A stretch of 64,000 bases of DNA from the NCBI GenBank assembly GCA_965205945.1, contig CBDBIB010000003.1:704394-768393 (forward strand). Reading direction: 5' to 3'. Of the stretch, positions 38,852 through 64,000 are shown in pieces. Origin of the DNA: Bdellovibrionales bacterium. GTDB lineage: Bacteria; Bdellovibrionota; Bdellovibrionia; Bdellovibrionales; UBA1609. Positions within the stretch are counted from its first letter, which is position 1. Every line of letters begins with the position of its first letter. The translations under genes were made by a program, and so were the position numbers. The notes under the pieces are model-generated. The model was not told where the DNA came from. It searched no databases and saw nothing but the letters and a program-made list of their open reading frames with translations.

Positions 38852-39126
38852 CCTTTTTCTTGAAAAATATGTCTTAAAATTTTAATAGTGTATAGTTTTG
38901 AATCGCTTTTTATTAAAAGCTGCAGCAATGTTGCTGTACTTGTTTTAAAAAAAGGTTCTAACATTTAAAAAATATTTAAACTAATTTTAATTAGTAGCTA
39001 ATAAGTTGACTTATTAAAACGAATAAACAGAAAGAGGAGAATAAAAAGGCGGCTTTAGATATGTTGACTTCATACCATTTCGGAAAATTTTTGGATAGTT
39101 GGGACCTGAAGGGAAATTTAATTCAG

Positions 39127-40667: not shown

Positions 40668-41024
40668 ATGTTTTCCTTTTTAAGCCCCTGATATTGTTTA
40701 AATAAAGTGGATTTCAAAAGTTAAACTGAATTTTAAATAATTAATTTTTCTCTCAGGTCCCAACTATCCAAAAATCGGGGGATTTCGGCATTGAATAAAG
40801 AGCTTAAAGTTTAAGCCTTTTTACTAAAGCAGTCCTAAAGATATTCTCTCCTTATTCATTAAAAAAGGCTGCTAGTAGCGCTCAAGCCCTGTTATTTGTG
40901 GCGCTACAATAAAAACAACAAATATTTTGGAAAAAGAAATTGTAAAAGTAAGAATTTTATAATATTTAAAGCTCTATTTCATAAATAAAAAAGTTTTTTA
41001 ACCCTTAATATTAGGAGAGTAAAT

Positions 41025-47183: not shown

Positions 47184-50100
47184 ATGAAGATAGCAAATGT
47201 AATCTTAATAACCATTGGATTGACTTTAGCTTTATTAGGGTGCAATCAAAACCTTCTTACTAATGAAGAAAACTCTTTAATTGGAAATATTTTTGATAAT
47301 GATACGATACTTAATCTTTCTTTTAGCTCTTCTCTTCCTGATATCACATCAAAAAACTCAGAGGTTTACCCATTAAGTGGTATATGTGATCCTGCTTCTG
47401 GGAGCGTAACTATTGTTGTAGACTCTTCTAATATTACAAAAAAATTTCCGTGTAATTTAAAAGGATTCTTTTCAGGGGTAATAGATTTAAGAAAAGTAGT
47501 TTCGACTACCCCTAAAATTTTAGCAACTCAAGGAGAATTAAAAACTTCAGATTCAGTGCTAAATGATCAAACTGGCCCAGCATCAGCTCCTATAGCAATT
47601 GCGCCAGGAAGATACGTTGGAGGCGACTATTATAATTTATCTATTTTATGCAATGAGCCTGGAGAAGTAGTGAGTATTAGTGGGGAAGGTATCGATCCAG
47701 ACACACAAGTCTATACTTGTACTAATAGTGGAGCAGAAGATTTTCCGTTAATGTTAGCAAATCTAATACAGACTAGTAACCCTAATAACTTAATAACCTC
47801 ATCAACTGATGAATATAAAAACCCCTCATCTGCAACAACAATAGTAAATGTTCCAATAGATAATGTAGCACCTATAGTAGCTATACAAGAAGGTGCCAAT
47901 ATAATTCAAGGGCAAGCAGCAAACTTTACTATTACAATTACTGATCAAAATATTTCAACACTTAATTATACTGTAAACACATCTGGTGCAGAACAAAGAT
48001 CTTATTCTTGTACTTTAAACCCTTGTTTTATAACTACAGGAATAATCTCATCAGTGGGTCAACTAACATTAACTGTAGCAGCCAATGCTGTAACAGATGA
48101 TGTTAACAATACAGGCGACAGTGTTTTAAAATCAAAAAGTCTTACAGTAATTGCAGCAGGAGATTTAAGCTTTAATAACCCACTTGATACAATCAATACT
48201 CTAAATGCGAGCTCTTATCCTGTAACAGGAGTTTGTGATGACGATTTAGGTGATGTTATAGTAACAGTAGGTCCAACAATAAGTGAAAGTATTTCATGTG
48301 ATTCTCCAGGAGTATTTAATGGGAATATTAATCTAAGCGGTGTAGCTTTAAACCCAGCACCAATTCATGTAACTCAAGGTGTAAAAACTGCGGATACTAA
48401 TTCAGTAAATGATCAAACTCCTCTTTCTAGTGCTCCAACAGTAGCAGATCAAACTTATAAAAATGGAGAAGATATAACACTAGCTTTAAATTGTAATGAA
48501 GCTGGAGAGATGGTGACATTTACAAGTGTATCATTAATGCCAAATCCACAAATGCACACTTGTTTAACTCCAGGATCTGAAAATGTAACATTTTATTTTG
48601 TAGCAGGGCAAGAAACCTTAAATCCAAATAATGTTATAGTAAGTTCTGTAGATGTAAATGGTAACCCAACAACAAACTCCACTGAGTTTAACTTACCAAT
48701 AGATAATGTAGCACCTACAGTCGCTATACAAGAAGGTGCCAATATAATTCAAGGGCAAGCAGCAAACTTTACTATTACAATTACTGATCAAAATATTTCA
48801 ACACTTAATTATACTGTAAACACATCTGGTGCAGAACAAAGATCTTATTCTTGTACTTTAAACCCTTGTTTTATAACTACAGGAATAATCTCATCAGTGG
48901 GTCAACTAACATTAACTGTAGCAGCCAATGCTGTAACAGATGATGTTAACAATACAGGCGACAGTGTTTTAAAATCAAAAAGCCTTACAGTAATTGCAGC
49001 AGGAGATTTAAGCTTTAATAACCCACTTGATACAATCAATACTCTAAATGCGAGCTCTTATCCTGTAACAGGAGTTTGTGATGGAGCTTTAGGTGATGTT
49101 ATAGTAACAGTAGGTCCAACAATAAGTGAAGATATTCCATGTAATTCTGGAACATTTAGTATTGATCTTAATCTAAGCAGTGTGACTTTAAACCCAGCAC
49201 CAATTCATATAACTCAAGGTGTAAACACTGCTAATGCTAATCCAGTAAATGATCAAACTCCTCTTTCTAGTGCTCCAACAGTAGCAGATCAAACTTATAA
49301 AAATGGAGAAGATATAACACTAGCTCTAAATTGTAATGAAGCTGGAGAGATGGTGACATTTACAAGTATATCATTAATGCCAAACCCACAAATGCACACT
49401 TGTCAAAGTCAGGGGCCTGAAAATGTAACATTTTATTTTGTAGCAGGGCAAGAAACCTTAAATCCAAATAATGTTATAGTAAGTTCTGTAGATGTAAATG
49501 GTAACCCAACAACAAACTCCACTGAGTTTAACTTACCAATAGATAATGTAGCACCTACAGTCGCTATACAAGAAGGTGCCAATATAATTCAAGGGCAAGC
49601 AGCAAACTTTACTATTACAATTACTGATCAAAATATTTCAACACTTAATTATACTGTAAACACATCTGGTGCAGAACAAAGATCTTATTCTTGTACTTTA
49701 AACCCTTGTTTTATAACTACAGGAATAATCTCATCAGTGGGTCAACTAACATTAACTGTAGCAGCCAATGCTGTAACAGATGATGTTAACAATACAGGCG
49801 ACAGTGTTTTAAAATCAAAAAGTCTTACAGTAATTGCAGCAGGAGATTTAAGCTTTAATAACCCACTTGATACAATCAATACTCTAAATGCGAGCTCTTA
49901 TCCTGTAACAGGAGTTTGTGATGGAGCTTTAGGTGATGTTACAGTAACAGTAGGTCTAACAATAAGCGAAGATATTCCATGTAATTCTGGAACATTTAGT
50001 ATTGATCTTAATCTAAGCAGTGTGACTTTAAACCCAGCATCAATTCATGTAATTCAAGGTGTAAAAACTGCTAATGCTAATCCAGTAAATGATCAAACTC

Positions 50101-52106
50101 CTCTTTCTAGTGCTCCAACAGTAGCAGATCAAACTTATAAAAATGGAGAAGATATAACACTAGCTTTAAATTGTAATGAAGCTGGAGAGATGGTGACATT
50201 TACAAGTGTATCATTAATGCCAAATCCACAAATGCACACTTGTTTAACTCCAGGATCTGAAAATGTAACATTTTATTTTGTAGCAGGGCAAGAAACCTTA
50301 AATCCAAATAATGTTATAGTAAGTTCTGTAGATGTAAATGGTAACCCAACAACAAACTCCACTGAGTTTAACTTACCAATAGATAATGTGGCACCTACAG
50401 TAACTGTAGCAGCAGAAGGAAATATTGTAGAAGGAAATAGTGCAAACTTTACAATAACAGTAAGTGATGGAACCGATTTTATAGCATTTACACCTACACC
50501 AAGCTCAGGAACGATAAGTTCTGGTGTTTGTTCTCAAACGCCATGTCAAGTAACTGTAGATGGGGCAACTGTAGGTACGCTTATTTTAACGGTAAATGCA
50601 GGTGATGTGGTAGATGCGGCAGGAAACACAAACGCCGCACCTACAAGTGATAACTTGGCAGTGAGTATTCCACAAATACTAGGGGTCATAGTGTCGTCAA
50701 CTGATGGGGATAGTGATACATGGTACGAAGATTTAGATACAGTTTCTATTCAGGTACAATATGATGCCGACGTTGTGCTTGACACTTCCAGTGGAACACC
50801 AATTATCCAGGTTACCTTATCTAGTGGAACTAAAACAGCTATATATTCTCAAGGCTCAGGCTCTCGGAATTTAGATTTTACAATACCTGTTGTAAATAAC
50901 GATTATCAATGCAGTGGGATTTTAGCTTTAGGGGGTATGAATTTAAATGGTGGTATAATTAAAAGTAGTCTAGGTGGAACTGTCAACAATTCTGGTTTAC
51001 CGTCTTCTGTGAGTGGAGCAAAGATAGATGCTAAGAGCCCTACTGCTCCAAGTGCGCTATCCAATGATCCGACTAATGCGTTTAACAATTTTTCTAGTGA
51101 GTTAAGTTGGGTTCAAGGCACTGATGAATGTGAGCTTTCAGTTGAATATGGATTTGGAACTAGCCCAGGAGCATTGGATGCTCAAAACTATATAAATATA
51201 GGTTCAGTAGAAGCCTACCAAGCACAAAGTGGTAATAATTCAGCTTTATTTAATTTACTTGCAAATACTAATTATTACACATCGATTAGATCTGTAGATG
51301 ATGCTGGAAATATGTCACAAGAAGAAAATAGTTTAGCATGGAGTTTTGCATGCTTAGAGCCATGGGGGGGTATAAGTAGACTTGTTTCTCTAGACAGTTC
51401 AAATGAAGAGTCTATTTTTGATATAAATAATATAGACGCATCAGATACTAGTTTTGATGGTTTGGTTAATAGGTGGGAAGATCAAAGTGGAAACAACAAC
51501 CATCTAGAAGCACCTTCGCTTTCAGCAAGACCAAGTTATAACTATGACGGTTTAAGTTCAGGATTAGATTCCTATGTTCAAGGTGATGGAGAAGATGATA
51601 CCTTAGTAAAAGATATTGATGATATTTCAACAGACTTTACATTTTATTATGTATTAAATGCGTTAAGCACAGGGCCTCGTGAATTTGAAAGTTATTTTAG
51701 TAATACTGATAACAAAGAAAGCACTGGAAGTTTTCAATTAGATATTGGTGGATCAACGAGAGGGTGTAGCAATAAATTTAGAGTACTTTTAAGGCACACT
51801 TTTGGAGTTCTTCCTGTTAGTATTTGTGGCGCTGACTACACTACAGGAAAACATGTATTTGTAGTTGACTATAACTCTGCAAATACCTCAATGTCTTTCT
51901 CTATAGATGGAGTAGAATATGGCAGTTATAACAGCCTTATAAGTGCTCCAATTTTTAGATGGTTGAGGCTGTTTCAGAATAGAGAAGGGATGCAGTTTCA
52001 AGAAGCTCAGGTGCTAGAGTTAAATCTAGTAACTCAAGGTTTAAATAGTAGTCAACGGGATGCAATATCTGAGTACTTAGTTTGTAAGTGGAATGTGCAG
52101 TTATAA
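47184..52106 (+). CDS. Large surface lipoprotein/adhesin with tandem Ig-like repeats and a C-terminal LamG/ConA-like domain
   Basis: GGGAG RBS; lipobox LLGC; repeated IDNVAP.V units with paired Cys; SVDDAGN; C-terminal WEDQSGNNNH...EYLVCKW. Confidence 0.8.
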   Translation: MKIANVILITIGLTLALLGCNQNLLTNEENSLIGNIFDNDTILNLSFSSSLPDITSKNSEVYPLSGICDPASGSVTIVVDSSNITKKFPCNLKGFFSGVIDLRKVVSTTPKILATQGELKTSDSVLNDQTGPASAPIAIAPGRYVGGDYYNLSILCNEPGEVVSISGEGIDPDTQVYTCTNSGAEDFPLMLANLIQTSNPNNLITSSTDEYKNPSSATTIVNVPIDNVAPIVAIQEGANIIQGQAANFTITITDQNISTLNYTVNTSGAEQRSYSCTLNPCFITTGIISSVGQLTLTVAANAVTDDVNNTGDSVLKSKSLTVIAAGDLSFNNPLDTINTLNASSYPVTGVCDDDLGDVIVTVGPTISESISCDSPGVFNGNINLSGVALNPAPIHVTQGVKTADTNSVNDQTPLSSAPTVADQTYKNGEDITLALNCNEAGEMVTFTSVSLMPNPQMHTCLTPGSENVTFYFVAGQETLNPNNVIVSSVDVNGNPTTNSTEFNLPIDNVAPTVAIQEGANIIQGQAANFTITITDQNISTLNYTVNTSGAEQRSYSCTLNPCFITTGIISSVGQLTLTVAANAVTDDVNNTGDSVLKSKSLTVIAAGDLSFNNPLDTINTLNASSYPVTGVCDGALGDVIVTVGPTISEDIPCNSGTFSIDLNLSSVTLNPAPIHITQGVNTANANPVNDQTPLSSAPTVADQTYKNGEDITLALNCNEAGEMVTFTSISLMPNPQMHTCQSQGPENVTFYFVAGQETLNPNNVIVSSVDVNGNPTTNSTEFNLPIDNVAPTVAIQEGANIIQGQAANFTITITDQNISTLNYTVNTSGAEQRSYSCTLNPCFITTGIISSVGQLTLTVAANAVTDDVNNTGDSVLKSKSLTVIAAGDLSFNNPLDTINTLNASSYPVTGVCDGALGDVTVTVGLTISEDIPCNSGTFSIDLNLSSVTLNPASIHVIQGVKTANANPVNDQTPLSSAPTVADQTYKNGEDITLALNCNEAGEMVTFTSVSLMPNPQMHTCLTPGSENVTFYFVAGQETLNPNNVIVSSVDVNGNPTTNSTEFNLPIDNVAPTVTVAAEGNIVEGNSANFTITVSDGTDFIAFTPTPSSGTISSGVCSQTPCQVTVDGATVGTLILTVNAGDVVDAAGNTNAAPTSDNLAVSIPQILGVIVSSTDGDSDTWYEDLDTVSIQVQYDADVVLDTSSGTPIIQVTLSSGTKTAIYSQGSGSRNLDFTIPVVNNDYQCSGILALGGMNLNGGIIKSSLGGTVNNSGLPSSVSGAKIDAKSPTAPSALSNDPTNAFNNFSSELSWVQGTDECELSVEYGFGTSPGALDAQNYINIGSVEAYQAQSGNNSALFNLLANTNYYTSIRSVDDAGNMSQEENSLAWSFACLEPWGGISRLVSLDSSNEESIFDINNIDASDTSFDGLVNRWEDQSGNNNHLEAPSLSARPSYNYDGLSSGLDSYVQGDGEDDTLVKDIDDISTDFTFYYVLNALSTGPREFESYFSNTDNKESTGSFQLDIGGSTRGCSNKFRVLLRHTFGVLPVSICGADYTTGKHVFVVDYNSANTSMSFSIDGVEYGSYNSLISAPIFRWLRLFQNREGMQFQEAQVLELNLVTQGLNSSQRDAISEYLVCKWNVQL
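47853..50397 (+). repeat. Three near-identical intragenic tandem repeats (843, 840, 840 bp)
   Basis: CCAATAGATAATGT(A/G)GCACCTA recurs at 47853, 48696, 49536 and 50376. Confidence 0.95.
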
Positions 52107-52773: not shown

Positions 52774-52789
52774 TGGTCGGGGAGACAGG
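52774..52789 (-). other. att-like site 1: 3'-end fragment of tRNA-Pro
   Basis: TGGTCGGGGAGACAGG is the reverse complement of CCTGTCTCCCCGACCA (T-stem, acceptor 3' strand, CCA). IHF-consensus AATCAAGAAATTA nearby at 52704-52716. Confidence 0.7.
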
Positions 52790-52968: not shown

Positions 52969-53010
52969 AACTACTTAGTAGTTGATAAAAACTATAAAGT
53001 AGTTGATAAT
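52969..53010 (+). promoter_or_regulatory. Promoter with tandem palindromic operators
   Basis: TTGATA (52982)-N17-GATAAT (53005)-N7-ATG. Boxes AACTAC-tta-GTAGTT (52969) and AACTAT-aaa-GTAGTT (52990), 21 bp apart. Confidence 0.65.
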
Positions 53011-53017
53011 TAAGTAT

Positions 53018-53350
53018 ATGGATTTTTCTGCACTATTCGGATCAGAAGCAGCAAAAAAAACGCTTCTTTATATTCAAAACTATGAAAAAGGTTACGCTGC
53101 TGAGATAGCTAAAACTTTTGAGGTTTCAAATAGTATGATCAAAAAGCAGTTAGAGAAGTTTGAAGGAGCAGGAGTTCTGGTGGCAGTTGAAGTGGGTCGC
53201 AGCAGGGTATTTGAATTCAATCCGAGATATCCCCTTCTATCAGAGCTTAAAGGACTGCTTAGTGGTCTCTTAGAGCTTCAATCAAAAGAAGATATAAAAA
53301 AGTACTTTAGAAAAAGATCAAGGCCTAGGCGAAAAGGAAAACCTCTTTGA
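53018..53350 (+). CDS. Winged-HTH protein, putative antitoxin/regulator
   Basis: LFGS, GYAAEIA, QLEKFE.AGVL, FNPRYP; likely start ATG 53018; overlaps the next gene. Confidence 0.8.
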   Translation: MDFSALFGSEAAKKTLLYIQNYEKGYAAEIAKTFEVSNSMIKKQLEKFEGAGVLVAVEVGRSRVFEFNPRYPLLSELKGLLSGLLELQSKEDIKKYFRKRSRPRRKGKPL

Positions 53351-53892
53351 TTGATAAGAATACAACACTTAAAGAGTTGGCTTTTGTAGTTTCAAGCCAA
53401 TTAGAAAAACATGACGTATCAGCAATTCTTGTAGGAGGTGCTGTGGTTTCAATATATACAGAGAATGAATACCAGTCTTACGATTTAGATTTTTGTTCAG
53501 TGGACTCAGTTAAAAAAATTGATGAAGCTCTTTTTCAAATTGGATTTAAGAAAGAGGGGCGGCGCTATAAACATTCTAATTCTGATTACTTTGTCGAGTT
53601 TCCTGGTGCTGTTGTGGTGCTAGGAAATGAGCATCAGACAGATTATGATCAATTGTCTGTTGATGGCAGAATACTAAAACTCCTTTCTCCCACACAATCT
53701 ATTAAAGACAGATTAGCAGCCTATTACTACTGGAAAGACTTGCAGTCTTTGGATCAGGCCTTGATGATTGCTAAAAATCAAAAATTTAGCATGGCAAGTG
53801 TTAAAAAATGGTCTGTTGCTGAGGGCGAACTTAGCAAGTTTGAAGAGTTTGAGAAAAAGTTTAAGCAGCTTACTTTGGGAAATAGAGATTAA
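53347..53892 (+). CDS. Pol-beta-superfamily nucleotidyltransferase (AbiEii/DUF6036-like), putative toxin
   Basis: LVGGAVVSIY...SYDLDF (GG and DxD motif); translationally coupled to the wHTH gene. Confidence 0.72.
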   Translation: MIDKNTTLKELAFVVSSQLEKHDVSAILVGGAVVSIYTENEYQSYDLDFCSVDSVKKIDEALFQIGFKKEGRRYKHSNSDYFVEFPGAVVVLGNEHQTDYDQLSVDGRILKLLSPTQSIKDRLAAYYYWKDLQSLDQALMIAKNQKFSMASVKKWSVAEGELSKFEEFEKKFKQLTLGNRD

Positions 53893-54059: not shown

Positions 54060-54383
54060 TTTCCTTGGTAGAATTCCCCTTAGTATTTAGGACCAATACC
54101 CCTGTGAAGCTTATAGACCGTATGGAAACCGAGTATTTGGGAAGAGTATCTTGAGCGTCTAGAGAGACATCAAGAAGAACTGACACTTAAACCTAGTACA
54201 CTTGAAGGGGCCATGGAAAAACTTGATCTAAAAGATCTAGCAAAAGGCATTTTTGGTCATGCCGAAAAAGATAATCTTGATTGTTTTAAACCATTTGTTG
54301 CTCGTGCTGTAAGAAAGTTAACTCAAAGACAGTATCTCGTCCTTAAAAAAATATATTGGTATCAGTGCACACTTTCTCAAAAT
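54060..54383 (+). pseudogene. Disrupted sigma70 region-4-like HTH gene
   Basis: WEEYLERLE...KLTQRQYLVLKKIYWYQCTLSQ; in-frame stops upstream; cut by the IS at 54384. Start approximate. Confidence 0.5.
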
Positions 54384-54452
54384 TGGGCCTCCCCAAAAAT
54401 ACTGGACAGTTTTCTAAGTGCGAACTAAACCTAAAAGGAGAGGTAAAAAGGC

Positions 54453-54793
54453 ATGGAGAAGAAGAAAGAGGCTACAGAGTCTAAAAAAAAGTACAATACT
54501 TTTTCAGAAGAATTTAAAGAAGAAGCTGTTGAATTGGCAAAGAGAGTTGGAAACAGCCAGGCATCAAGAGATCTAGGAACTACTGAAACCAGCATTAGAA
54601 ATTGGAGAAAAAAGCTAAATCTAAAACTCCTGAAAGCTTATTAAAAGAGGAAAATAAGAAGTCATATAGAGAGCTTGAGAAAGAAAATAAGCGTTTAAAA
54701 AAAGAGCTTGGCTGGATGCAAGAAATTAATACAGTGTTAAAAAAAAGCACAGCGATTTTCTCCTCAGATCAGATCAAAAAGTCAAAATCATGA
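54453..54793 (+). CDS. IS3 OrfA, split by a frameshift at A6G (54608-54614)
   Basis: HTH half (FSEEFKEEAV..SIRNWRKK) and zipper half (ELEKENKRLKKEL..LKKS) lie in different frames. Confidence 0.75.
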
Positions 54794-55656
54794 AAGAGCT
54801 AAGTTTAACAATTCCCGTCTATTTTTTATGCATTTTTTTTGGAGTAAGTAAGAGTACTTTTTATTATTTAAATAATAAAAAAAGCTCAAAGTCGTTTCAA
54901 AGGAAAACAAAAATAAAGGAAAGAATTAAGAGCATTTTTGAATCATCGTATAAAACTTATGGTTCACCACGTATTTATGAGGAGTTAAAAGATAAAGAGA
55001 TTTTCGTGAGTGAGAATACAGTTGCAAAATACATGAAGGAGTTGGGCTTAGATGCCCGTCATAAGAAGACTTTTAAAGTTTTAACGACTGACTCCAATCA
55101 TAAGTTTAAAGTGGTACCAAGGCTTTTTAAAGTTGAAGAAGAGCACTCCTTACCAACAGGGCCAGGAAGAGTTTTAGCAGGAGATATCACTTATTTAAGA
55201 TTAGGAACAGGCAGGAATTTTTTATACTTAGCCGTAGTAATTGATTTATTTAACCGTGAAGTTGTTGGTTGGAGTATAGGTAAAAGCTTAGAGACAAGAT
55301 TGGTGTTAAAAGCACTTGAAATGGCCATAAAAAAAGTTGGCCCAAGTGCTGAAGTGATTTTTCATTCAGATCGTGGGTCTCAATACGCTAGTGATGCTTA
55401 TAGACAGTTTTTAAAAAACAAAAAGATAAGACCAAGTATGAGTAGAAAAGGAAATTGCTATGATAATGCATATACTGAAAGTTGGTTTTCAAGTTTTAAA
55501 AAAGAATTTTTATATAGAAAAAGCTATACTGGAGAAAGAGAATTAAGATCGTTAGTATTTGAATATATTGAAGTTTGGTATAACAAGAAAAGAAGGCATT
55601 CTTCTCTTGATTATCAAAGCCCTAAAGGGTATGCAATTAAACACAACCTCGCATAG
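54790..55656 (+). CDS. IS3-family transposase OrfB
   Basis: YGSPRI, GDITY, FHSDRGSQY, SMSRKGNCYDNA.TESWF, RRHSSLDYQSP. Confidence 0.95.
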   Translation: MKELSLTIPVYFLCIFFGVSKSTFYYLNNKKSSKSFQRKTKIKERIKSIFESSYKTYGSPRIYEELKDKEIFVSENTVAKYMKELGLDARHKKTFKVLTTDSNHKFKVVPRLFKVEEEHSLPTGPGRVLAGDITYLRLGTGRNFLYLAVVIDLFNREVVGWSIGKSLETRLVLKALEMAIKKVGPSAEVIFHSDRGSQYASDAYRQFLKNKKIRPSMSRKGNCYDNAYTESWFSSFKKEFLYRKSYTGERELRSLVFEYIEVWYNKKRRHSSLDYQSPKGYAIKHNLA

Positions 55657-55689
55657 GAAAAAGTGTCCTATTTCTTTGGGGAAGTCCAA

Positions 55690-56244
55690 ATTGAGGAACT
55701 CAAACAGGTTGAGGTAAGGTTTAGTGACTCCATCCGCTCTCTTGCATTACAAGGTACGGATAGCCTCGAAACGGCCATTGCGCTTCTGGTTGAAGACAAA
55801 AAGAAGGCCAACAAAGAAATAAATGAGCTGAACGATGAGTTGAATAAAATCATTGAAAAAGAAAAATCACACAAACGAGGTTACGAAGGTCACGATTTAA
55901 AACGCTTTTTAAGCATGGCCTTTAGAGACTTTGATAAAATGTATGACATAGAGAAAAAAACGCTACTACAGGCCGTTTTTTCTCAAATCCTAGTACACAC
56001 AACTGATGATGGTGTCGATCTTGAGATCGTGACCTCATTAGATCCCTTCCAATCACCTGCCCCTGCCTCTAGCACTAGGGGCAAGGGTGAAGGTTTCGCA
56101 AAAATACTTAAATTCCCTTCTATTAAAAATCAAAAAACAGAAATAAAAAAAGGCCATTTTCTATCATCCAAACCCGTTCGGGGTGTGGAGGGCACAAAGT
56201 GGCCTTTTGTCGTAAATGATCGGGGAGACAGGTGGCACTTTTGA
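55690..56244 (+). pseudogene. C-terminal remnant of a large serine recombinase/integrase reading into att-like site 2
   Basis: Coiled coil, then EKKTLLQAVFSQILV...LEI; the last codons NDRGDR are encoded by the tRNA fragment; no catalytic domain. Confidence 0.55.
56217..56232 (-). other. att-like site 2: 3'-end fragment of tRNA-Pro
   Basis: TGATCGGGGAGACAGG, one mismatch to site 1. Confidence 0.68.
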
Positions 56245-56443: not shown

Positions 56444-56743
56444 ATGAAGAAAGCCTCACTCATTTTTACAGAAAAATATCTTGTAGGAAGTGATGTTGTT
56501 GTGGAGATCAAGGTTTGGCAGTTGCCTAAATCTGATTGGAAGAGGTATCCAGATAAGATCAAATACCGCTTGGTGTGTATCAACACCAGGACTGGTAAAA
56601 GGGTCTTGATGGACAACCACTCTCCTAAAGGACACCACGTTCACTTAGATGATGTGGAAAAAGACTATGAGTTCTGCACGGTGGAAGCACTCTTCAGTGA
56701 TTTTAAAAAATTTGTTCTAAACTATATGGAGGTGAAATTATGA
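56444..56743 (+). CDS. DUF6516/TumE-like putative toxin
   Basis: YPDKIKYRL...RVLMDNHSPKGHHVH motif pattern. Confidence 0.75.
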   Translation: MKKASLIFTEKYLVGSDVVVEIKVWQLPKSDWKRYPDKIKYRLVCINTRTGKRVLMDNHSPKGHHVHLDDVEKDYEFCTVEALFSDFKKFVLNYMEVKL

Positions 56744-57108
56744 AAACACTCACTATCGCTTTAAAAACCAGTGATGATCTTTTTGATGACGCTATTCAGT
56801 CCATGAAAGAAGCTATGAAAAAAGAAGTTAAAAAAGCGCCTCAATATATGATCACATTCACAAGCCCAAAGGAATTTGATAAGTTTTTAAAACACATCAA
56901 ACTTATTCGAGTGATTAAATATCTTAAACCAGAATCTGTTTACGAACTGGCTAAGGTGATGAAAGTAGATGTCTCAAACCTTAATAAGTCCATTCAGTTT
57001 CTAGAAGACTTTGAGGTCATCACGGTTAAAACAACTAAAAAGAATGGCAGGACTCTTAAAAAACCTATTTTTGAATTTGATGACATTCGGATTAAGATGG
57101 CGGCTTAA
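56740..57108 (+). CDS. HTH putative antitoxin (HVO_A0114-like)
   Basis: PESVYELAKVM..DVSNL...LE, RTLKKP..FDDIRI; GGAGG RBS and ATGA overlap. Confidence 0.75.
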   Translation: MKTLTIALKTSDDLFDDAIQSMKEAMKKEVKKAPQYMITFTSPKEFDKFLKHIKLIRVIKYLKPESVYELAKVMKVDVSNLNKSIQFLEDFEVITVKTTKKNGRTLKKPIFEFDDIRIKMAA

Positions 57109-57152
57109 GCTGTTATCTTTATGGCTTAAAGAAAAACGAAAGGGGTTAGTGG

Positions 57153-57162
57153 ATGGCTAAAG
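57153..57162 (+). pseudogene. Original 5' end (ATG GCT AAA G) of the radical SAM gene, separated by the IS
   Basis: AGGGG RBS at 57141-57145. Joining 57162 to 58865 gives in-frame MAKAPLTDK-MILASEK. Confidence 0.75.
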
Positions 57163-57276
57163 CCCCCGATTTTTGGATAGTTGGGACCTGAGAGAAAAAT
57201 TAATTATTTAAAATTCAGTTTAACTTTTGAAATCCACTTTATTTAAACAATATCAGGGGCTTAAAAAGGAAAACAT

Positions 57277-57777
57277 ATGAAAAACAATAACCTCAATAAA
57301 ACTTATAATGAAAACTTTAAACTCAACGCTGTGAAAAAATTACTCGCTGACAAAAAAGGACTCACTTACACCGCTAGTAAACTTAACATTGCCTCTTCAA
57401 CCCTCTATGGATGGAAGAAAAAATATGCTAATTTAAATTCTATGACCCACAGCAACAGCAATAAAAAACTCTCTCTTGAAGACAAACTTAACTTTATTAA
57501 AAAAACTCAATCTTTAAATGAAAACGAACTTGGAAAATTTCTTAGAGAAAATGGACTTAACTCTTCAGACCTTATTAATTTTGAAAAAGAATTACTTGGA
57601 CAAAATCCTGTTGGAAGACCTTCACTTGATCCTGAAATTAAAACTTTAAGGAAAGATAAAATAAACTTAGAAAGATCTTTAAATCGAGCTGAAAAAGCTC
57701 TAGCTGAACAGTCTGCTAGAATCATCTTGTTAAAAAAAAGCCACGAGATCTGGGGGGTCAAAGAGGACGAAGATTAA
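57277..57777 (+). CDS. IS3-family transposase OrfA
   Basis: Translation identical to 40167-40667. Confidence 0.9.
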   Translation: MKNNNLNKTYNENFKLNAVKKLLADKKGLTYTASKLNIASSTLYGWKKKYANLNSMTHSNSNKKLSLEDKLNFIKKTQSLNENELGKFLRENGLNSSDLINFEKELLGQNPVGRPSLDPEIKTLRKDKINLERSLNRAEKALAEQSARIILLKKSHEIWGVKEDED

Positions 57778-58817
57778 GTCCTGATGACAAAGAAGTTTGT
57801 CTTGAATTAATTAACACCTCTTCTAAAAATGGCTGTAGACTTAAACTTGCCTGCAGCGATTTAGAAATTGATATTAAAACTTTCAACCGCTGGAAACTTT
57901 CTTTAACTGATAAAAGAAAAGGACCCTTATCGCCTCCAAAAAATAAATTAAGTGATAAAGAAAAAGATGAGATCATTAACACCTGTACTTTAAAAAAGTA
58001 TGTTGATGACTCTCCTCATGTGATAGTTTCAAAACTTGCAGATGATGGAGTTTATTTAGCAAGTGAATCAAGTTTTTATAAAGTTTTAAAAGAGAATAAA
58101 CTTTTAGTTCATAGAGGAAGAACAAAACCAAAAACTAAACAAAAGCCAAAAGGAATGACTGCAACGGAAGTGAATCAAGTTTATTCTTGGGATATTACTT
58201 ATTTAAAAACTTTGGTGCGGGGTCGGTTTTATTATTTATATATGTTTATGGATGTGTTTAGTAGAAAGATTGTAGGTTATAAAGTACACGTTAGAGAAAG
58301 TATGGATTTATCATCAGAGTTAATTAAAGAGATTTGTGAGAGAGAAAAAATAAAAAGAGATGAGCTAGTATTACATTCAGATAATGGCGGCTCAATGAAG
58401 GGAGCAACGATGCTAGCAACACTTGATTGGTTGGGAGTTTCAAGTTCATTTAGTAGGCCGAGTGTAAGTAATGACAATGCCTATTCAGAAAGTTTATTTA
58501 AGACGTTAAAGTATGTGCCGGATTATCCAGAGTTTTTTAAAAGCATAGGTGATGCAAGAGACTGGGTTGATAATTTTGTTAATTGGTACAATGAAGAGCA
58601 TCGTCACAGTGGAATAAAGTTTGTGACGCCATCAGAGCGCCATTTAGGAAAAGATAAAGAGATATTAGAAAAGCGTAAGGAAGTTTATGAAGCAGCAAGA
58701 AGGTTAAAGCCAGAGCGCTGGAGTAGCAGAGGAATTAGGAATTGGGAGCGAGAGAATGTGGTGTATTTAAATTGTTTGCCAAGTGAAAAAGTAGTTGTTA
58801 TGAAGAATGTGGTTTAA
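57732..58817 (+). CDS. IS3-family transposase OrfB (DDE), reached by -1 frameshift
   Basis: The -1 frame is open from the slippery run through SWDITY, HSDNG and SESLF. Confidence 0.9.
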   Translation, partial: KKKPRDLGGQRGRRLSPDDKEVCLELINTSSKNGCRLKLACSDLEIDIKTFNRWKLSLTDKRKGPLSPPKNKLSDKEKDEIINTCTLKKYVDDSPHVIVSKLADDGVYLASESSFYKVLKENKLLVHRGRTKPKTKQKPKGMTATEVNQVYSWDITYLKTLVRGRFYYLYMFMDVFSRKIVGYKVHVRESMDLSSELIKEICEREKIKRDELVLHSDNGGSMKGATMLATLDWLGVSSSFSRPSVSNDNAYSESLFKTLKYVPDYPEFFKSIGDARDWVDNFVNWYNEEHRHSGIKFVTPSERHLGKDKEILEKRKEVYEAARRLKPERWSSRGIRNWERENVVYLNCLPSEKVVVMKNVV

Positions 58818-58881
58818 CTGAATTAAATTTCCCTTCAGGTCCCAACTATCCAAAAATTTTCCGACCCCACTTACAGACAAA

Positions 58882-60177
58882 ATGATTTTGGCTTCTGAAA
58901 AAATTGATTCGAATTCAGCTTATAAGTCTCAACTGGACTGGGGGCCTTTTAAAAAAGCTGAGCTTCGAGCTCAGAAAAAGCCTATTCGTGGAGGTTTTAC
59001 TTTTGGTTCACCTTTCAAACTTGTGAACTCGCATTCTACTTGTCAGCAGTGTCTCTACTCTTTTGAGGTAGACACCTATGGTCGTGGTTGCGTTCATAAT
59101 TGTGTTTATTGCTATGCAAAGGCTGAGCTTACAGTTCATGGTTACTGGAACAATCCATATCCAGCTCCTGTAAACATCAATGAAATTAGAAAAGTATTTC
59201 ACACTGTTTTTGAAACAGATAGAAAATCTAAGTTTCGTGAAGTGATGGAAAAAAGAATCCCTATTCGTATTGGGTCTATGAGTGACTCGCTCATGCATAT
59301 GGACAGCAAATATGGTGTTACAAAAGAACTCTTAAGAATTTTAAAGCATTATAAATACCCATATGTGATTTTCACTAGGTCAGACTTGGTGGCCCAAGAT
59401 GACTATATGGAGCTTATTGAGCCAAACCTGGCCTCTGTTCAGTTTTCCATATCGTCAACAAACGATAAACTGAACAAACTCATTGAGCCAGGTGCGCCCA
59501 GTGCCAAGCGTAGGTTATCAGCTCTTACGAAACTCAACAAAGCAGGGTTTTGGACCACAGTAAGGATCAACCCGCTTTTCCCAATTATGCCTGATGGTTA
59601 CTTTACTGATCCAAATTTTGAATGGTGGGGTGAGGGTGAAGTTCCAAAATTTGATTACTCTTCATTCGATATGGTTGATGAAATTGCTGCAACAGGCACC
59701 CCCTCAATTTTAGCTGGCTTTGGTAGATTTAGTTCATTCTCACTAAATCAAATCGAAAAGGCTGTAGATTTTGATCTTCGTCAGTTCTACAACCCTGGCG
59801 AGGGTGGAGTCAAAAAATCAAAACGTGATTTTCACTTTTCAGACAAAGAGATTCGGTACTACTACGAACAGATTAAAGAGCGTTGCTATAAAAACGCCAT
59901 GGAATTTACAACATGCTATATTGGTAATGGTGAAGAGCACTTTTGGAAAGATCAGGATTTATGGTCTAACAAAAAAGACTGCTGTAATGTGAAGGGCCGG
60001 GTTGAAGCTTTTAAAACCGACTCTCGTGAAATACCTTTTGAAACAAGGTTGAGGTTCACAAATCATAAAAAAGCAGAGCCTATCAACGCCGAAACTCTGC
60101 ACAAACCTCTAGGTGGTCTTGAAACTATTGATCTGCCTAAAAAAGAAAAATCTAAGTCGCCAGAGGCTACACTTTAG
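58882..60177 (+). CDS. Radical SAM protein, spore-photoproduct-lyase-like, with extra Cys motifs
   Basis: DTYGRGCVHNCVYCYA (CxxxCxxC), IGSMSD, IFTRS, IEPGAPS..RRL.AL, VRINPLFP; extra CQQC and C-terminal TTCY...DCC. Confidence 0.88.
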   Translation: MILASEKIDSNSAYKSQLDWGPFKKAELRAQKKPIRGGFTFGSPFKLVNSHSTCQQCLYSFEVDTYGRGCVHNCVYCYAKAELTVHGYWNNPYPAPVNINEIRKVFHTVFETDRKSKFREVMEKRIPIRIGSMSDSLMHMDSKYGVTKELLRILKHYKYPYVIFTRSDLVAQDDYMELIEPNLASVQFSISSTNDKLNKLIEPGAPSAKRRLSALTKLNKAGFWTTVRINPLFPIMPDGYFTDPNFEWWGEGEVPKFDYSSFDMVDEIAATGTPSILAGFGRFSSFSLNQIEKAVDFDLRQFYNPGEGGVKKSKRDFHFSDKEIRYYYEQIKERCYKNAMEFTTCYIGNGEEHFWKDQDLWSNKKDCCNVKGRVEAFKTDSREIPFETRLRFTNHKKAEPINAETLHKPLGGLETIDLPKKEKSKSPEATL

Positions 60178-60182
60178 TTGTT

Positions 60183-60572
60183 ATGGCTAAAAAGACTTTC
60201 ACAGGCGTAAACATTCAGTGGCCCATCTCTGAGCTTATTGTAAGCGGTGAGAAGACTGTGGAGACTAGAACTTACGCTCTGCCTGAAAAGCACTTAAACC
60301 AAGCAATGGTCTTGATCGAAACGCCAGGAAAGCAGGGTAAGTTTAAGGCTCGTATGGTGGCCGTGATTAAATTTACAGACTCTTTTAAATACAAAAGCAA
60401 AACAGCTTTTTATAAAGATATCGACCGCCATAAAGTCACTAAAGACTCTTTATGGGCCTGGTCAGATGAAAAACCTAAATGGGGGTGGGAAGTCACAGTT
60501 TTGAAGACTTTTAAGGCTAAAGAAGCTCCCAAGAAAAAAGGAATTGTTTTTACAAAAGACATCAGTCTTTGA
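60183..60572 (+). CDS. ASCH-domain protein
   Basis: NIQWPISELIVSGEKTVETR (GxKxxExR motif), WGWEV; 5 nt after the radical SAM stop. Confidence 0.85.
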   Translation: MAKKTFTGVNIQWPISELIVSGEKTVETRTYALPEKHLNQAMVLIETPGKQGKFKARMVAVIKFTDSFKYKSKTAFYKDIDRHKVTKDSLWAWSDEKPKWGWEVTVLKTFKAKEAPKKKGIVFTKDISL

Positions 60573-60680: not shown

Positions 60681-61499
60681 TCAAGCCTTCTTTTTAAGGA
60701 GCTCTTCTCCAATTAATGCAGACCCTAATGAATTAGCCACCAGAAATGCGTTGTCGTCCATGAGCGTTCCTCTAACGAACGTATTCGAAAAGGGTGTAGT
60801 CACGGCTTTGTGCCCTTCGAGAGTGCCATCTAACCCTAAGTGGTATGAAACTCCCACAGCGCCTCCGAAGGCTATGCATTTTAGGTTTGTAATTAAGAAA
60901 CCAATACTCTGGTGTTCAGCAGTTTGTGGGTCTAAGTAAGACTGGGCTGCTTCAAAGTAGCGAATTAGAAATCTGCTCACTAATCCTATCCCTATAGTAG
61001 GAATAATAGAATGGGTAAGTGCACTTCTATGTTTACCGATCCCCAACCAGCTAATGTCTTTGTCTGGTATAGCATTTCCTGCTTTGGCTCCAGCATAAGC
61101 CCCTAAACCTGTAGAGATAATATAAGCTGTTGCTTTAAGAGCGAACACGGCTCTTCCTTCTGGTGATAAACTTTTAAAGTGTGAATTTAGAGCTCTACTA
61201 TTTTTCCATGTTGAAACACTAGTGTTTTTAATTCTAGAGGGAAGCTTTTTAAGCTCGCTTGCTGTTTGTTTGGCATCTGTCCCAATGCAGTGGAGAGCCT
61301 GTTTAGGGCCTTCTTCTCGAGATATTTTTATGAAGTTTGTAGAGTATTTACCTGCGGCTATGAATGGTCTAGCAGCGGCCTTACCCATTTCAGGGAGGTC
61401 TTCTTTAATTACGCCTTTACAAACTGCTTTGTAATCATTCCTAGCAGCAAGCGTGAGGGCGGAAATAATACCTTTGTCTTGATCTAGTGTGCGATCCAT
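60681..61499 (-). CDS. Membrane metal-dependent hydrolase, YdjM-like, with soluble N-terminal extension
   Basis: IPDKD, HRSALTHS and SYHLGLD match the PDxD / HRxxTHS / HxxxD pattern; GGAGG RBS. Confidence 0.65.
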   Translation of the reverse strand: MDRTLDQDKGIISALTLAARNDYKAVCKGVIKEDLPEMGKAAARPFIAAGKYSTNFIKISREEGPKQALHCIGTDAKQTASELKKLPSRIKNTSVSTWKNSRALNSHFKSLSPEGRAVFALKATAYIISTGLGAYAGAKAGNAIPDKDISWLGIGKHRSALTHSIIPTIGIGLVSRFLIRYFEAAQSYLDPQTAEHQSIGFLITNLKCIAFGGAVGVSYHLGLDGTLEGHKAVTTPFSNTFVRGTLMDDNAFLVANSLGSALIGEELLKKKA

Positions 61500-61576: not shown

Positions 61577-61804
61577 ATGGAAAATTATGAATTAGATGAA
61601 AAAATTACTTTATTAGGGCAGAGAATCTCTAAATTGAGACGTCGAAAGGGTTTAACTGTAGAGAAGTTAGCATATGAGTCGGGAGTCTCAAAAGGGAATT
61701 TATCTGATCTAGAAAACGGTAAAGTAAACCCTAGGTTCACAACACTTTTATTGCTTTCTGAGGGGCTAGAAGTCTCTCTGTCAGCACTTGTTAAAATTTA
61801 CTAG
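61577..61804 (+). CDS. XRE-family HTH regulator (controller-protein-like)
   Basis: LGQRISKLRRRKGLT.EKLA.ESGVS...SDLENGKVNP. Confidence 0.9.
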   Translation: MENYELDEKITLLGQRISKLRRRKGLTVEKLAYESGVSKGNLSDLENGKVNPRFTTLLLLSEGLEVSLSALVKIY

Positions 61805-62310
61805 GTGTTTCGCTCTAAAACTTGCATCAATTTTTCTCTAATGGAGCTACTTTTTATTTTTTGACGATTTGTTTTTTCATTAAATATTCCGAGATGCCTG
61901 CCAAGTAGTTCAAGAGCCTTAAGGCTGTCTTTGAGTTTAATGCTTATTTCTGGACCCAACTTCCTCTGTTTAACTTTTATTAATTCTATAGCGGATGCTG
62001 ATGTTGTTAAAGAGTTTGAAGGGATTAAATAAATTCCTTTTTCATTCAATGTCACAAAGTTATCAATTGATGCAAAGGCGATTTTAGCTAGTTCCTGCAC
62101 TACTGCATCAGCATTTATCTTTAGGCGTAGAGAGCGTTCTTTTTTGAGTTCTGAAATATAAGTTTGAATGTCAGGTTTTGTAAGGTTCTCTTGGCCAATA
62201 GACCTAGCTGTTTTGTGCGAATAGCCTGCTCTAATGGCCGACTTAGTGGCGCAAAGGTCAACGAGGTACTCTGCACAGAAAATTCTTTGTTTTTCAGTTA
62301 ATACAGCCAT
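61801..62310 (-). CDS. terS: Phage terminase small subunit
   Basis: LTEKQRIFCAEYLVDLCATKSAIRAGYS.KTA..IGQENLTKP, ELAKIAFA, KALELLGRHLG. Confidence 0.92.
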   Translation of the reverse strand: MAVLTEKQRIFCAEYLVDLCATKSAIRAGYSHKTARSIGQENLTKPDIQTYISELKKERSLRLKINADAVVQELAKIAFASIDNFVTLNEKGIYLIPSNSLTTSASAIELIKVKQRKLGPEISIKLKDSLKALELLGRHLGIFNEKTNRQKIKSSSIREKLMQVLERNT

Positions 62311-62409
62311 ATCTATATTTTATGATAGGTATGACTTTTGTGATAGTGAAAAGGCGCCGCCTTTTCTTTAAGGGCTAAATATCTTAAACAAAATACTCAT
62401 TGAACTTTT

Positions 62410-64000
62410 CTAAAAATCATCAAATTCATCAGAACCTTCAGAAAAACCGATTCCAACAAAAACATCTCCGTTAGACCTATGAATTCGCTTAAATCCCTTA
62501 TTATACATTTGCTTATAAAACTCATTTCTGGTGATAGGTGTAAACCTAGCTCCAAAAGATTCAGACCAAAACTTGAATTCATCATAAAGGTCTTTGGGCT
62601 TTATATAAGACTTTCTATCTAAACTGATTAAGCGAGTATTATTACTAAAGGCCTGGACCTCTTTATTCTCGATATCTTGAATAAACTGAGAGACCCAATC
62701 ATGGCTTGTTTGCCATTTTGAAAGCTCAGATTTCCCAGACTTCGGATTGATGAAGTGCCCCTGTGAAAGCATAAGGGATTTTATACCTTCTAAAGCAAAG
62801 TTAATGATTCCCTCAGGTGAGTGTTCAAACACTTTATCAGAAAAGTCTTTGTCGAATTCAGTTTTAGTAAAACAATTTTCAAATTTTAAAATGCTCCAGC
62901 GTCTAGTGTGTGCTCCGCTGATTCCATCTCCTAATTTTGGTAAGTGGTTTCCTGCAAAAATATGAATTGCTGGAAGTGGAGCGTAAATAGGTGCTTGGAA
63001 CTTCCTATCAATCCTAACGGCTACTCTGTCTTCAATCTTCTTTAAATTGCCATCAGACATTTCTTTTTTACAATCTATATCAGTAACTATGTTAATTAGT
63101 TTGCCAACCATTGATTCCATTAAAAAGCCTTTGAATTCATGTGGTTCAACAGAGCTCAAATTGTCTTTTTGAAGAAGTTTGGTGATTGGCAGTAAGCATG
63201 ATGGCTTCCCTGACCCTGCGGCTCCAACCATAAGAAATAGACGTGGATAAACTGGGAATAGACAAGCTCCGAACATCTGTTTCACAGCTTCAATTTTTTC
63301 AGTTTTATCTGAGTCTCCTTGAAAAGTAGAATTTAGCATCTCTAGAAACAGCTGGTTTTCAACTTTAGGGTTATTAGGGTAATTAAATTGAATGATATTC
63401 GTCAGGTAGTCTTTAGCGGAGTGTCCTCTAAAATCAAACTTGAAATTTTTACCTTTGCCACTTAGATGTAACGTGCCATTCTTAAAATTAACTTTCGTTG
63501 GCACAGGTCTAAATAAGTCTATGGATTGAGGCGGTGTTGGTGTGAATGTCACAAGCATTTTAAAAGCTTTTTCTAATGCTGTTCCTGATATTTTATTCTT
63601 TTTTGTTTTTGCTATTTGCTGTTTAATCTCGTCGATAGCGTCATTGTCTGCTAAGTTCCATTTTAGTGAGTCATATAAGAATAAACTTCTATTCTGCTTT
63701 ACTATTTTTCCATCAAAGAATTTATTATTCTTTCTATCATAGGAACAACCATAAACCTCTTTGAGTGTGGTCATAACTATTGAAAAGTCTTTACTTCCCT
63801 GATTACTGGTGGATACCAATTGGTCTAGATCTAATTTATTCTGTTTGCCATACTCTAAAGAGTTTTTAAGTTTTTCCTCTAGCTCACTTTCTCTCCAAGG
63901 TGGCTCACAGGAATGATTCCACTCCTTGAATATAGGTAGAGCAGCATTTGCGCTCAAACCAAAGCCTTTTGTTAGGAGGCAGGCTACGTGGAATGTCTGC
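62410..64000 (-). CDS. P4/D5-family primase-helicase (PriCT + D5_N + SF3 helicase), 5' part outside the window
   Basis: EWN..CEPPW...EL (PriCT-like), VNFKNG, Walker A-like GAAGSGKPS, IDRKFQ, AGNHLP, RRW; frame open to the window end. Confidence 0.85.
   Translation of the reverse strand, partial: QTFHVACLLTKGFGLSANAALPIFKEWNHSCEPPWRESELEEKLKNSLEYGKQNKLDLDQLVSTSNQGSKDFSIVMTTLKEVYGCSYDRKNNKFFDGKIVKQNRSLFLYDSLKWNLADNDAIDEIKQQIAKTKKNKISGTALEKAFKMLVTFTPTPPQSIDLFRPVPTKVNFKNGTLHLSGKGKNFKFDFRGHSAKDYLTNIIQFNYPNNPKVENQLFLEMLNSTFQGDSDKTEKIEAVKQMFGACLFPVYPRLFLMVGAAGSGKPSCLLPITKLLQKDNLSSVEPHEFKGFLMESMVGKLINIVTDIDCKKEMSDGNLKKIEDRVAVRIDRKFQAPIYAPLPAIHIFAGNHLPKLGDGISGAHTRRWSILKFENCFTKTEFDKDFSDKVFEHSPEGIINFALEGIKSLMLSQGHFINPKSGKSELSKWQTSHDWVSQFIQDIENKEVQAFSNNTRLISLDRKSYIKPKDLYDEFKFWSESFGARFTPITRNEFYKQMYNKGFKRIHRSNGDVFVGIGFSEGSDEFDDF

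Follow-up and report, generated by a model that had tools for sequence, protein, structure and literature searches.

Restriction systems are classically divided between an enzyme that methylates and an enzyme that cuts. We describe a gene pair that almost always adjoins such systems in predatory relatives of its host: an enzyme of the radical S-adenosylmethionine (SAM) superfamily that resembles spore photoproduct lyase (SPL), followed by a small protein with a predicted ASCH fold. One copy lies at positions 58864..60572 of the stretch that we analyzed, 64,000 nucleotides from a Bdellovibrionales bacterium (GenBank assembly GCA_965205945.1, contig CBDBIB010000003.1), hereafter the window. Judging from the sequences of relatives, the intact cassette consists of a small upstream open reading frame (ORF), the SPL-like radical SAM gene, whose product has a putative second, cysteine-ligated metal site, and the ASCH gene. 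We propose that it is a restriction-associated accessory with a PUA-like domain, and that the local instance is degraded.

Several described systems resemble parts of the cassette. The SPL (PDB 4FHC/4FHF)/COG1533-type group provides the best structural match to the radical SAM protein and shares its cluster and EPG..S..RL motifs. However, the window-type protein adds an N-terminal CQQC motif and a C-terminal cysteine region of ~190 residues, with all of these cysteines invariant. Moreover, the cassette is coupled to ASCH beside restriction systems and has no spore or ultraviolet-repair context. Proteins with the ASCH fold include a GKER type (Thermus TTHA0113, human EOLA1, TRIP4-ASCH) and the GKTR type of E. 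coli YqfB, and the window protein shares this fold and has a K24/E27/R29 motif. In contrast to the GKER-type proteins, it is missed by the Pfam ASCH model, is 11-20% identical to its structural matches and is encoded after a radical SAM gene. According to the accessible part of a preprint (bioRxiv 10.64898/2026.02.27.708502), from which we also took the definition of the GKER octapeptide, TthASCH (2DP9) is an N4-acetylcytidine (ac4C) amidohydrolase in which Lys23 and Glu26 are essential. YqfB has a related K/T/E triad (PMC6972931, accessible part).

Bacterial ASCH domains are also fused to, or share operons with, N6A-methyltransferases, and are predicted readers of N6-methyladenine (m6A), as stated in the accessible portion of Iyer, Zhang and Aravind 2016 (PMC4738411). 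The cassette is similar in that ASCH is encoded beside an N6A-type DNA methyltransferase. However, that portion of the paper mentions no radical SAM partner, and in the cassette it is the radical SAM gene to which ASCH is translationally close; the methyltransferase gene usually has a convergent orientation or a separate transcript.

Z1 ATPases are the motor of the CglI/NgoAVII restriction systems, and Z1 is the dimerizing domain of N.CglI (PMC4267653, in the part available). These systems, composed of M, R and an N protein with DEAD and Z1 domains, and the PADLOC system “Mza” are reminiscent of the cassette's commonest neighbors, a Z1 ATPase and a large methyltransferase. Unlike the cassette loci, they lack radical SAM and ASCH genes, and the cassette's neighbors add DUF2779 and cold-shock proteins. 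None of these four partners (Z1, large methyltransferase, DUF2779, cold-shock) is present in the window. Finally, prokaryotic viperins (pVip) are also radical SAM enzymes in defense islands, but they match the window protein only at chance level (PADLOC E 0.003, NCBIfam E 0.0078), and their structures rank far below SPL.

The original prediction, made from the window's sequence, held that no named system is known to have exactly this composition, and we found none. In PADLOC-DB v2.0.0, including its PDC candidates, the window pair matches only pVip (E 0.003) and BilB (E 0.005), and intact homologs from locus L002 match 0 families. A full-text literature search found no description of a radical SAM-ASCH cassette, although supplementary tables of defense-candidate surveys may list one. 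The accessible parts of PMC7641849 and PMC10853773 do not mention one.

Linkage and restriction-system neighborhood

At E <= 0.001, we found 937 homolog clusters for the radical SAM protein and 173 for the ASCH protein. The best 120 homologs of each are mainly from Bdellovibrionota, with identities of 63-90% (radical SAM) and 51-86% (ASCH). The supposition that the two genes form a conserved pair agrees well with their co-occurrence. Of 38 loci in species-representative genomes, 36 have ASCH after the radical SAM gene, and the other two are explained by a gene fragment and a contig end. Of 34 metagenome loci, 33 have this order, and the single exception is again at a contig end. We also selected by hand 20 extra places, spanning the identity range, from the 59 of our distribution scan. 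The ASCH-coupled type occurs in 11 of them, and ASCH follows in 11/11 loci with the ASCH-type radical SAM gene. The closest relative (locus L075) is 89% identical in amino acids and 79% in nucleotides. Relative to it, the radical SAM gene has a ratio of nonsynonymous to synonymous substitution rates (dN/dS) of 0.038 and ASCH one of 0.086; synonymous sites are nearly saturated in this comparison. The two genes form a closely linked operon on which purifying selection is strong.

Immediately before the radical SAM gene, and overlapping it, 11 of the 38 genome loci have a small conserved ORF of about 70-86 amino acids. Most metagenome loci whose sequence extends upstream have it too. Seven members of this group gave no significant Pfam family (best DUF6290, E 0.022). 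They may be ribbon-helix-helix proteins, a label taken from the sequence pattern only and not confirmed by Pfam.

We clustered the ORFs of the 38 genome loci and scanned representatives for known families. A DNA amino-methyltransferase is encoded within about three genes of the pair in 34 of these loci, and three of the four misses are at a contig edge. In 18 loci, a ~1100-amino acid Eco57I/N6_Mtase protein, which PADLOC matches to DrmMI (6.8e-33) and type IIG models, is directly downstream and convergent. Its frequent companions are a 672-amino acid DUF2779 protein (16 loci), a cold-shock-domain protein (12 loci) and a Z1 ATPase (10 loci; PADLOC MzaC 5e-114). An N6_N4_Mtase neighbor, either fused to HNH or beside a ResIII helicase, occurs in 11 loci, and another Eco57I-, N6- or N6_N4-type methyltransferase in five. 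PADLOC also matches neighbors to type II/III methyltransferase models. The 11 extra ASCH-coupled loci adjoin the same two methyltransferase types or McrB/McrC-like pairs with or without a TaqI-like methyltransferase; a 2000-amino acid DEAD/MZB helicase with a WYL regulator is also found beside such loci.

The restriction architectures near the cassette are therefore diverse: type IIG/DrmMI-like with Z1 ATPase and DUF2779; type III-like Mod/Res or methyltransferase-HNH; LlaJI-like McrBC with a TaqI-like methyltransferase; and large DEAD/MZB or SNF2 helicases with Eco57I-like methyltransferases. Other defense neighbors are AbiE, ThsB-TIR, AbiJ, RhuM, Mrr, HNH, WYL, HerA and nSTAND. In a quick maximum-likelihood tree of 35 full-length radical SAM proteins, with support from the Shimodaira-Hasegawa-like approximate likelihood ratio test (SH-aLRT) only, the starred branches force at least seven label changes for the type IIG partner, and N6_N4-type loci nest in type IIG clades. 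Because the methyltransferase type changes many times on this tree, the cassette moves between restriction architectures. The original prediction had placed the pair in the cargo slot of an integrated element and pointed to the defense genes in satellite cargo regions. The local copy is indeed inside an integrated element, but the near-obligate adjacency to methyltransferase and restriction genes is the stronger signal.

The same prediction's view of the pair as an accessory in defense or mobile contexts is supported by its distribution and by its proximity to defense genes. Radical SAM matches at E <= 1e-30 occur in 51 of 401 sampled genomes of the phylum and 40 of 203 genera, a count that includes paralogs lacking ASCH. 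They occur in 4 of 26 genomes of the window's family (own genome excluded) and in neither of the two other genomes of the genus. The cassette is thus patchy in Bdellovibrionota, and is carried in mobile elements and defense islands. At two loci (L004, L030), the pair is beside a small terminase and an integrase, as in the window. No radical SAM relative was found in viral contigs by a scan that used two peptide patterns only. Phage records match the radical SAM core only distantly (22-32% identity, 8 records) and show no ASCH match, and plasmids have no match at E <= 1e-20.

One 2.18-Mb Oligoflexales chromosome has six loci (L020, L026, L027, L028, L032, L038), three full-length and three partial. 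Each is amid AbiE, ThsB-TIR, recombinase or transposase genes plus N6_N4 methyltransferase-HNH genes, which looks like repeated acquisition or duplication of defense islets.

Features of the two proteins

The product of 58882..60177 belongs to the radical SAM superfamily by its match to PF04055 (44.2 bits; Pfam cut-off 29.5). The three cysteines of its cluster motif, C70-x3-C74-x2-C77, are invariant among 50 homologs, and so are five extra cysteines: C54 and C57, which form the N-terminal CQQC, and C345, C367 and C368 (C345...C367C368), which fall in the C-terminal region of ~190 residues. All three motifs had been recognized in the original prediction. The invariance of the five extra cysteines is consistent with a second metal site in the enzyme. 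The local copy keeps every column that is invariant in the homologs; only its start is missing.

Homologs are named “DNA repair photolyase” or “SPL family radical SAM protein” in their sources. Nevertheless, the window protein falls below the cut-offs of the curated SPL families (PF20903, 18.2 versus 27 bits; TIGR04070, 18.3 versus 400; TIGR03886, 18.4 versus 437.55). Its top sub-threshold NCBIfam matches are PA0069 (6.6e-24; 84.6 versus 360 bits) and Rv2578c (6.2e-20; 71.5 versus 430 bits), and mobile pair protein B (45.6 versus 410 bits) is also below its cut-off. These three matches cover residues ~48-238 only. A DUF1848 match is below threshold too.

The predicted structure (pLDDT 81.8) has SPL chains as its six best Foldseek matches in the PDB (E 1e-9 to 9e-9, TM 0.43-0.58), followed by pyruvate formate-lyase activase (2.4e-6) and viperins (about 1e-4). 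Going by this model, SPL is the closest solved structure, a resemblance and not family membership. In an alignment of hidden Markov models, the C-x3-C-x-Y-C-Y and EPG..S..RL motifs of the two proteins correspond; this alignment spans only the cluster motif and profile residues 227-274. The catalytic hydrogen donor of SPL is Cys140 in the solved Geobacillus enzyme, as named in PDB titles.

The second ORF begins 5 nucleotides past the radical SAM stop codon and carries SGEKTVETR, as had been noted. Searches of Pfam, NCBIfam and PHROGs assigned its product to no family at E <= 0.01, and the best result of a profile search of PDB sequences has an E-value of only 0.2 (1wk2, 2dp9). By contrast with these sequence searches, an AlphaFold model built with 45 homologs (pLDDT 93.3) has TTHA0113 (2dp9) as its best Foldseek match (E 2.7e-5, TM 0.68/0.71), with EOLA1, ZmASCH, TRIP4-ASCH and YqfB next. 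The earlier label “ASCH” therefore holds at the level of the predicted fold, on which it rests, and not at that of a sequence family. G22, K24, E27 and R29 are invariant in 45 sequences, which places the protein in the GKER subgroup. Fused ASCH forms of 227-2000 amino acids were not found, in a search that is itself weak evidence. A prediction of the radical SAM-ASCH complex from alignments scored 0.00, a result that counts neither for nor against binding.

The window copy and its integrated element

The gene pair had been predicted to start at 57141 and to include a restored 440-amino acid radical SAM gene. Instead, an insertion sequence (IS) of the IS3 family occupies the start of this region (Table 1). 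The MAKAPDF N-terminus of the proposed gene is partly IS sequence, and the left flank lacks the N-terminus found in homologs. The 440-amino acid gene is incorrect because an IS-linked deletion truncated the 5′ end.

Table 1 Features of the integrated element within the window
Feature	Position	Strand	Remarks
attL-like 16-bp direct repeat TGGTCGGGGAGACAGG of tRNA-Pro 3′ end	52774..52789		Left end of ~14.7-kb element
Overlapping pair: 115-amino acid winged helix-turn-helix-like protein and 181-amino acid DUF2204-like nucleotidyltransferase-fold protein	53003..53892	+	PADLOC PDC-M05A 5e-9 for first
Second, different IS3-family element	54213..56244 region		orfA about 54453..54644, orfB 54790..55656
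TumE toxin and HVO_A0114-type winged helix-turn-helix partner	56444..56743 and 56740..57108	+	PF20126 5.7e-9; PF25212 5.8e-13
IS3-family insertion sequence	57163..58863	+	orfA 57277..57777 (HTH_Tnp_1), orfB 58020..58817 (rve); 5′ breakpoint of radical SAM gene
5′-truncated SPL-like radical SAM gene	58864..60177	+	First usable start ATG 58882 (431 amino acids)
Stand-alone ASCH-fold protein, 129 amino acids	60183..60572	+	GxKxxExR (“GKER”) motif at G22/K24/E27/R29
272-amino acid predicted membrane protein	60681..61499	-	Sub-threshold YdjM/GDT1 only (Pfam)
HTH_3 regulator	61577..61804	+	Replication/packaging module
Small terminase	61801..62310	-	Terminase_2 1.3e-41
Prim-Pol/D5-type primase	62410..>64000	-	741 amino acids in genome; Prim-Pol, D5_N, DUF5906

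Homology to intact relatives starts at the first base past the IS, which begins the T codon of a conserved TPLTDKM sequence. In homologs of 460-470 amino acids, TPLTDKM is located about 30-35 residues from the start. The local copy has therefore lost about 29 codons of the N-terminus, together with the small upstream gene. At the nucleotide level, it is homologous to the closest relative (L075) over exactly 58864 to 60562, between the IS edge and the end of the ASCH gene. The left flank of the IS does not encode the missing N-terminus, and when the first 48 residues of four close homologs were searched against the whole genome, only the retained part beginning with TPLTDKM matched.

The ends of the IS, determined by aligning seven copies, are CCCCCGATTTTTGGATAG... 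to ...CTATCCAAAAATTTTCCG, and its imperfect terminal inverted repeats are around TGGATAGTTGGGACCTGA. Since all 8 full-length copies listed in the 1.87-Mb genome are 100% identical, the IS has been recently active, and because the copies are still identical the break in the radical SAM gene is recent. Two other copies have 4-bp target duplications (AAAT and ATAT), but the copy at the radical SAM gene has none (AAAG on its left, ACCC on its right). This lack suggests a deletion or rearrangement mediated by the IS, in which everything upstream of the radical SAM remnant was lost. A simple insertion, from which excision could restore the gene, is rejected because the target site is not duplicated and the N-terminus is not encoded in the flank. 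Sequence words occur at a depth of ~330 over the IS versus 4-6 on its flanks in the likely source runs, and assembly contigs break at 57163-57170 and 58856-58863. Neither an IS-bridging contig nor a joined, IS-free form was seen in contigs of four runs, although contigs cannot show absence.

Another copy of this IS is in the window at about 39080..40791 on the minus strand, and further copies are on genome contigs C1 and C3. Several copies lack target duplications, which suggests IS-mediated rearrangements elsewhere in the genome too.

The radical SAM gene occurs once in the host genome (5 contigs, 97% complete). Genome-wide, there is no homolog of the type IIG-like methyltransferase, Z1, DUF2779 or Res partners, and the sole trace of an N6_N4 methyltransferase-HNH fusion is a 48-residue match to the HNH region (E 2.7e-4). 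By comparison, the locus of the closest relative holds the full set: Z1, cold-shock domain, methyltransferase, small ORF, radical SAM and ASCH. We found no promoter-like site on the plus strand in 58500-58882, where the scan gave fewer sites than shuffled sequence. The sequence thus appears to be an orphaned, IS-truncated copy of the cassette. It is probably inactive because it has no native start, upstream gene or promoter-like site and no partner methyltransferase in the genome, and the remnant is probably silent.

The surrounding element had been predicted to be integrated, with an att-like end and with the pair between a toxin-antitoxin-like pair and a terminase/primase module. This prediction is confirmed, because the repeats, tRNA-Pro, an integrase and the element's genes were all found. 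Within the 42 kb to the left of the tRNA region, the 16-mer at 52774 is the only such match to that region. The tRNA-Pro gene is just beyond the window's right end (L054:5825-5901), 14.7 kb from the repeat, and a tyrosine integrase is encoded beside it (L054:4485-5777; PF00589 2.2e-25). From left to right, the element contains the PDC-M05A/DUF2204 pair, the second IS3 with a recombinase fragment, TumE/HVO_A0114, the first IS3, the truncated radical SAM-ASCH pair, the 272-amino acid membrane protein, the HTH regulator, the small terminase, the primase and the integrase. TumE/HVO_A0114 is a toxin-antitoxin-like pair upstream of the IS and outside the cassette. The gene for the membrane protein, whose product has no match in NCBIfam, PADLOC or PHROGs scans, holds the slot where relatives carry the DNA methyltransferase, and the replication/packaging module spans 61577..64000. 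The element resembles a phage satellite in having an integrase at a tRNA, flanking direct repeats, a primase of its own and a small terminase but no structural genes. The truncated pair is inside this element at tRNA-Pro.

Three further observations concern the left part of the element and its flank. The PDC-M05A/DUF2204 genes may be a small defense or toxin-antitoxin-type pair, and DUF2204-like homologs recur near the cassette in another locus (L013). A 193-amino acid ORF (55663..56244) abuts the second IS3 and shows only weak similarity to large serine recombinases, in their C-terminal part (CcrB E 0.0069; phrog_95 integrase E 0.0014), as if the IS had truncated a recombinase gene. Directly left of the att-like repeat is a gene for a 1640-amino acid predicted lipoprotein (47184..52106, plus strand; N-terminal ...LALLGC), which has three near-identical repeats of roughly 280-300 residues, then a distinct C-terminal region.

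Candidate functions of the cassette

Because the relatives' copies almost always adjoin DNA-methylating restriction systems, the cassette probably acts on modified bases. We tentatively favor a role as a generic helper of restriction systems. ASCH would flip out and bind, or hydrolyze, a base modified on an exocyclic nitrogen, such as m6A, N4-methylcytosine (m4C) or an acylated base. This role is proposed because the protein retains the Lys, Glu and Arg of the Thermus GKER-type N-acyl amidohydrolase. The radical SAM enzyme would abstract a hydrogen from the same substituent, its extra cluster could serve as an electron sink, and the mark would thereby be removed or rewritten in support of restriction. 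The writer/reader or sensor/effector roles that the original prediction gave to the two proteins are speculative. It is quite unlikely, though conceivable, that the cassette specifically erases or rewrites methyl or acyl marks on exocyclic nitrogens of DNA, e.g., N6-methyladenine, without a need for oxygen. Here, the radical SAM enzyme would take the hydrogen from the substituent, the five-cysteine metal site would accept the electron and the GKER ASCH protein would hydrolyze the imine or amide.

A number of observations weigh against a helper of restriction systems that acts on DNA. The sequence similarity of the radical SAM protein to SPL is marginal (E 0.17 in a profile alignment), and all curated family cut-offs are missed. 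Nine of the 20 extra loci (L055-L059, L061-L064) encode radical SAM proteins that are 33-47% identical to the window protein by tblastn, and these loci have neither ASCH nor a methyltransferase neighbor. Five of these paralogs were aligned; they have 35-41% identity and keep all five extra cysteines. The six scanned paralog loci are operons with a class-V aminotransferase (Aminotran_5), PP-loop DUF7411, GDSL lipases, a carbamoyltransferase, DegT and FdtA, and a ~120-amino acid protein is also within the conserved operon. These look like operons for glycan or small-molecule biosynthesis. Because of this context, the radical SAM fold is not tied to DNA and may act on nucleotide-linked small molecules, and the chemistry of the cassette is unproven. 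In addition, four viral contigs (L050-L053, IMG/VR) carry ASCH homologs (45-48% identity) without a radical SAM gene. Their neighbors, in an early-gene-like run, are a phosphoribosyltransferase, two metallophosphatases and a QueC-like protein, a context that hints at nucleotide metabolism. Three of the 11 extra ASCH-coupled loci (L066, L067, L068) have McrBC-type genes and no recognizable methyltransferase in the stretch scanned, and some loci adjoin housekeeping genes, for instance RNase G, DNA ligase and arginase in L022. Finally, since defense genes cluster anyway, adjacency alone cannot prove functional coupling.

Much of this evidence would also fit a self-contained, viperin-like anti-phage system that works on free nucleotides. 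In such a system, the radical SAM enzyme would make an antiviral (deoxy)nucleotide analog, the ASCH protein, as an amidohydrolase, would provide or process a substrate of the cytidine type, and the adjacency to restriction genes would come only from the clustering of defense genes. The paralogs in small-molecule or glycan operons, the phosphoribosyltransferase beside the phage ASCH homologs and the clear defense-island context all agree with this idea, as do the free N4-acylcytidines hydrolyzed by characterized ASCH enzymes (PMC6972931, accessible part) and the weak pVip and viperin matches mentioned above. We nevertheless consider it unlikely. The methyltransferase adjacency (34/38) is far tighter than that of any other defense gene in the same loci, SPL structures outrank viperins (1e-9 versus about 1e-4 in Foldseek), the viperin matches are far under the family cut-offs, and the conserved neighbors include no nucleotide kinase or similar gene.

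A target in RNA, such as tRNA, is very unlikely on present evidence. ASCH would erase an ac4C-type acyl mark on an RNA that is also modified or repaired by the radical SAM enzyme, perhaps as a stress or abortive-infection switch. It is true that 19 of 19 ASCH proteins tested removed ac4C from tRNA (bioRxiv 10.64898/2026.02.27.708502, accessible part), that the local protein retains the catalytic K/E/R, and that RNA modifiers such as RlmN are among the structural matches of the radical SAM protein. However, no tRNA, rRNA or translation gene is a conserved neighbor; the conserved neighbors are DNA methyltransferases and restriction ATPases, and a patchy, mobile distribution is ill-suited to core RNA metabolism. 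We reject a housekeeping SPL-type DNA-repair lyase with ASCH as a damage-recognition helper, which could hardly be reconciled with the distribution and context. Although SPL is the closest solved structure and homologs carry names that suggest SPL or DNA repair, the protein reaches only 18 bits against SPL cut-offs of 27 (Pfam) and 400 (TIGR04070). The gene occurs in only 51 of 401 genomes of the phylum and 0/2 other genomes of the genus, lies in integrative elements and defense islands, with six loci in one 2.18-Mb genome, and has no repair genes among its conserved neighbors. The radical chemistry on DNA bases of the original prediction is not assured, given that 35-41% identical paralogs with the same extra cysteines occur in glycan-type operons.

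To return to the restriction-helper reading, the cassette accompanies at least five unrelated restriction architectures, and its partners have been exchanged repeatedly. This suggests a third, reusable function, linked to base modification, beyond methylation and cleavage. The local copy is a dated example of decay, in which an IS cut the cassette from its partners. If the cassette is an eraser, restriction systems could strip protective marks off incoming DNA or reset their own marks, and its radical SAM enzyme would be the first of the superfamily to demodify DNA, while ASCH would for the first time have an enzymatic role on DNA. More generally, editing of DNA marks by the pair would be relevant to how bacteria handle phages with modified DNA, to whether m6A or m4C can be removed enzymatically in prokaryotes and to the roles of ASCH proteins on DNA.

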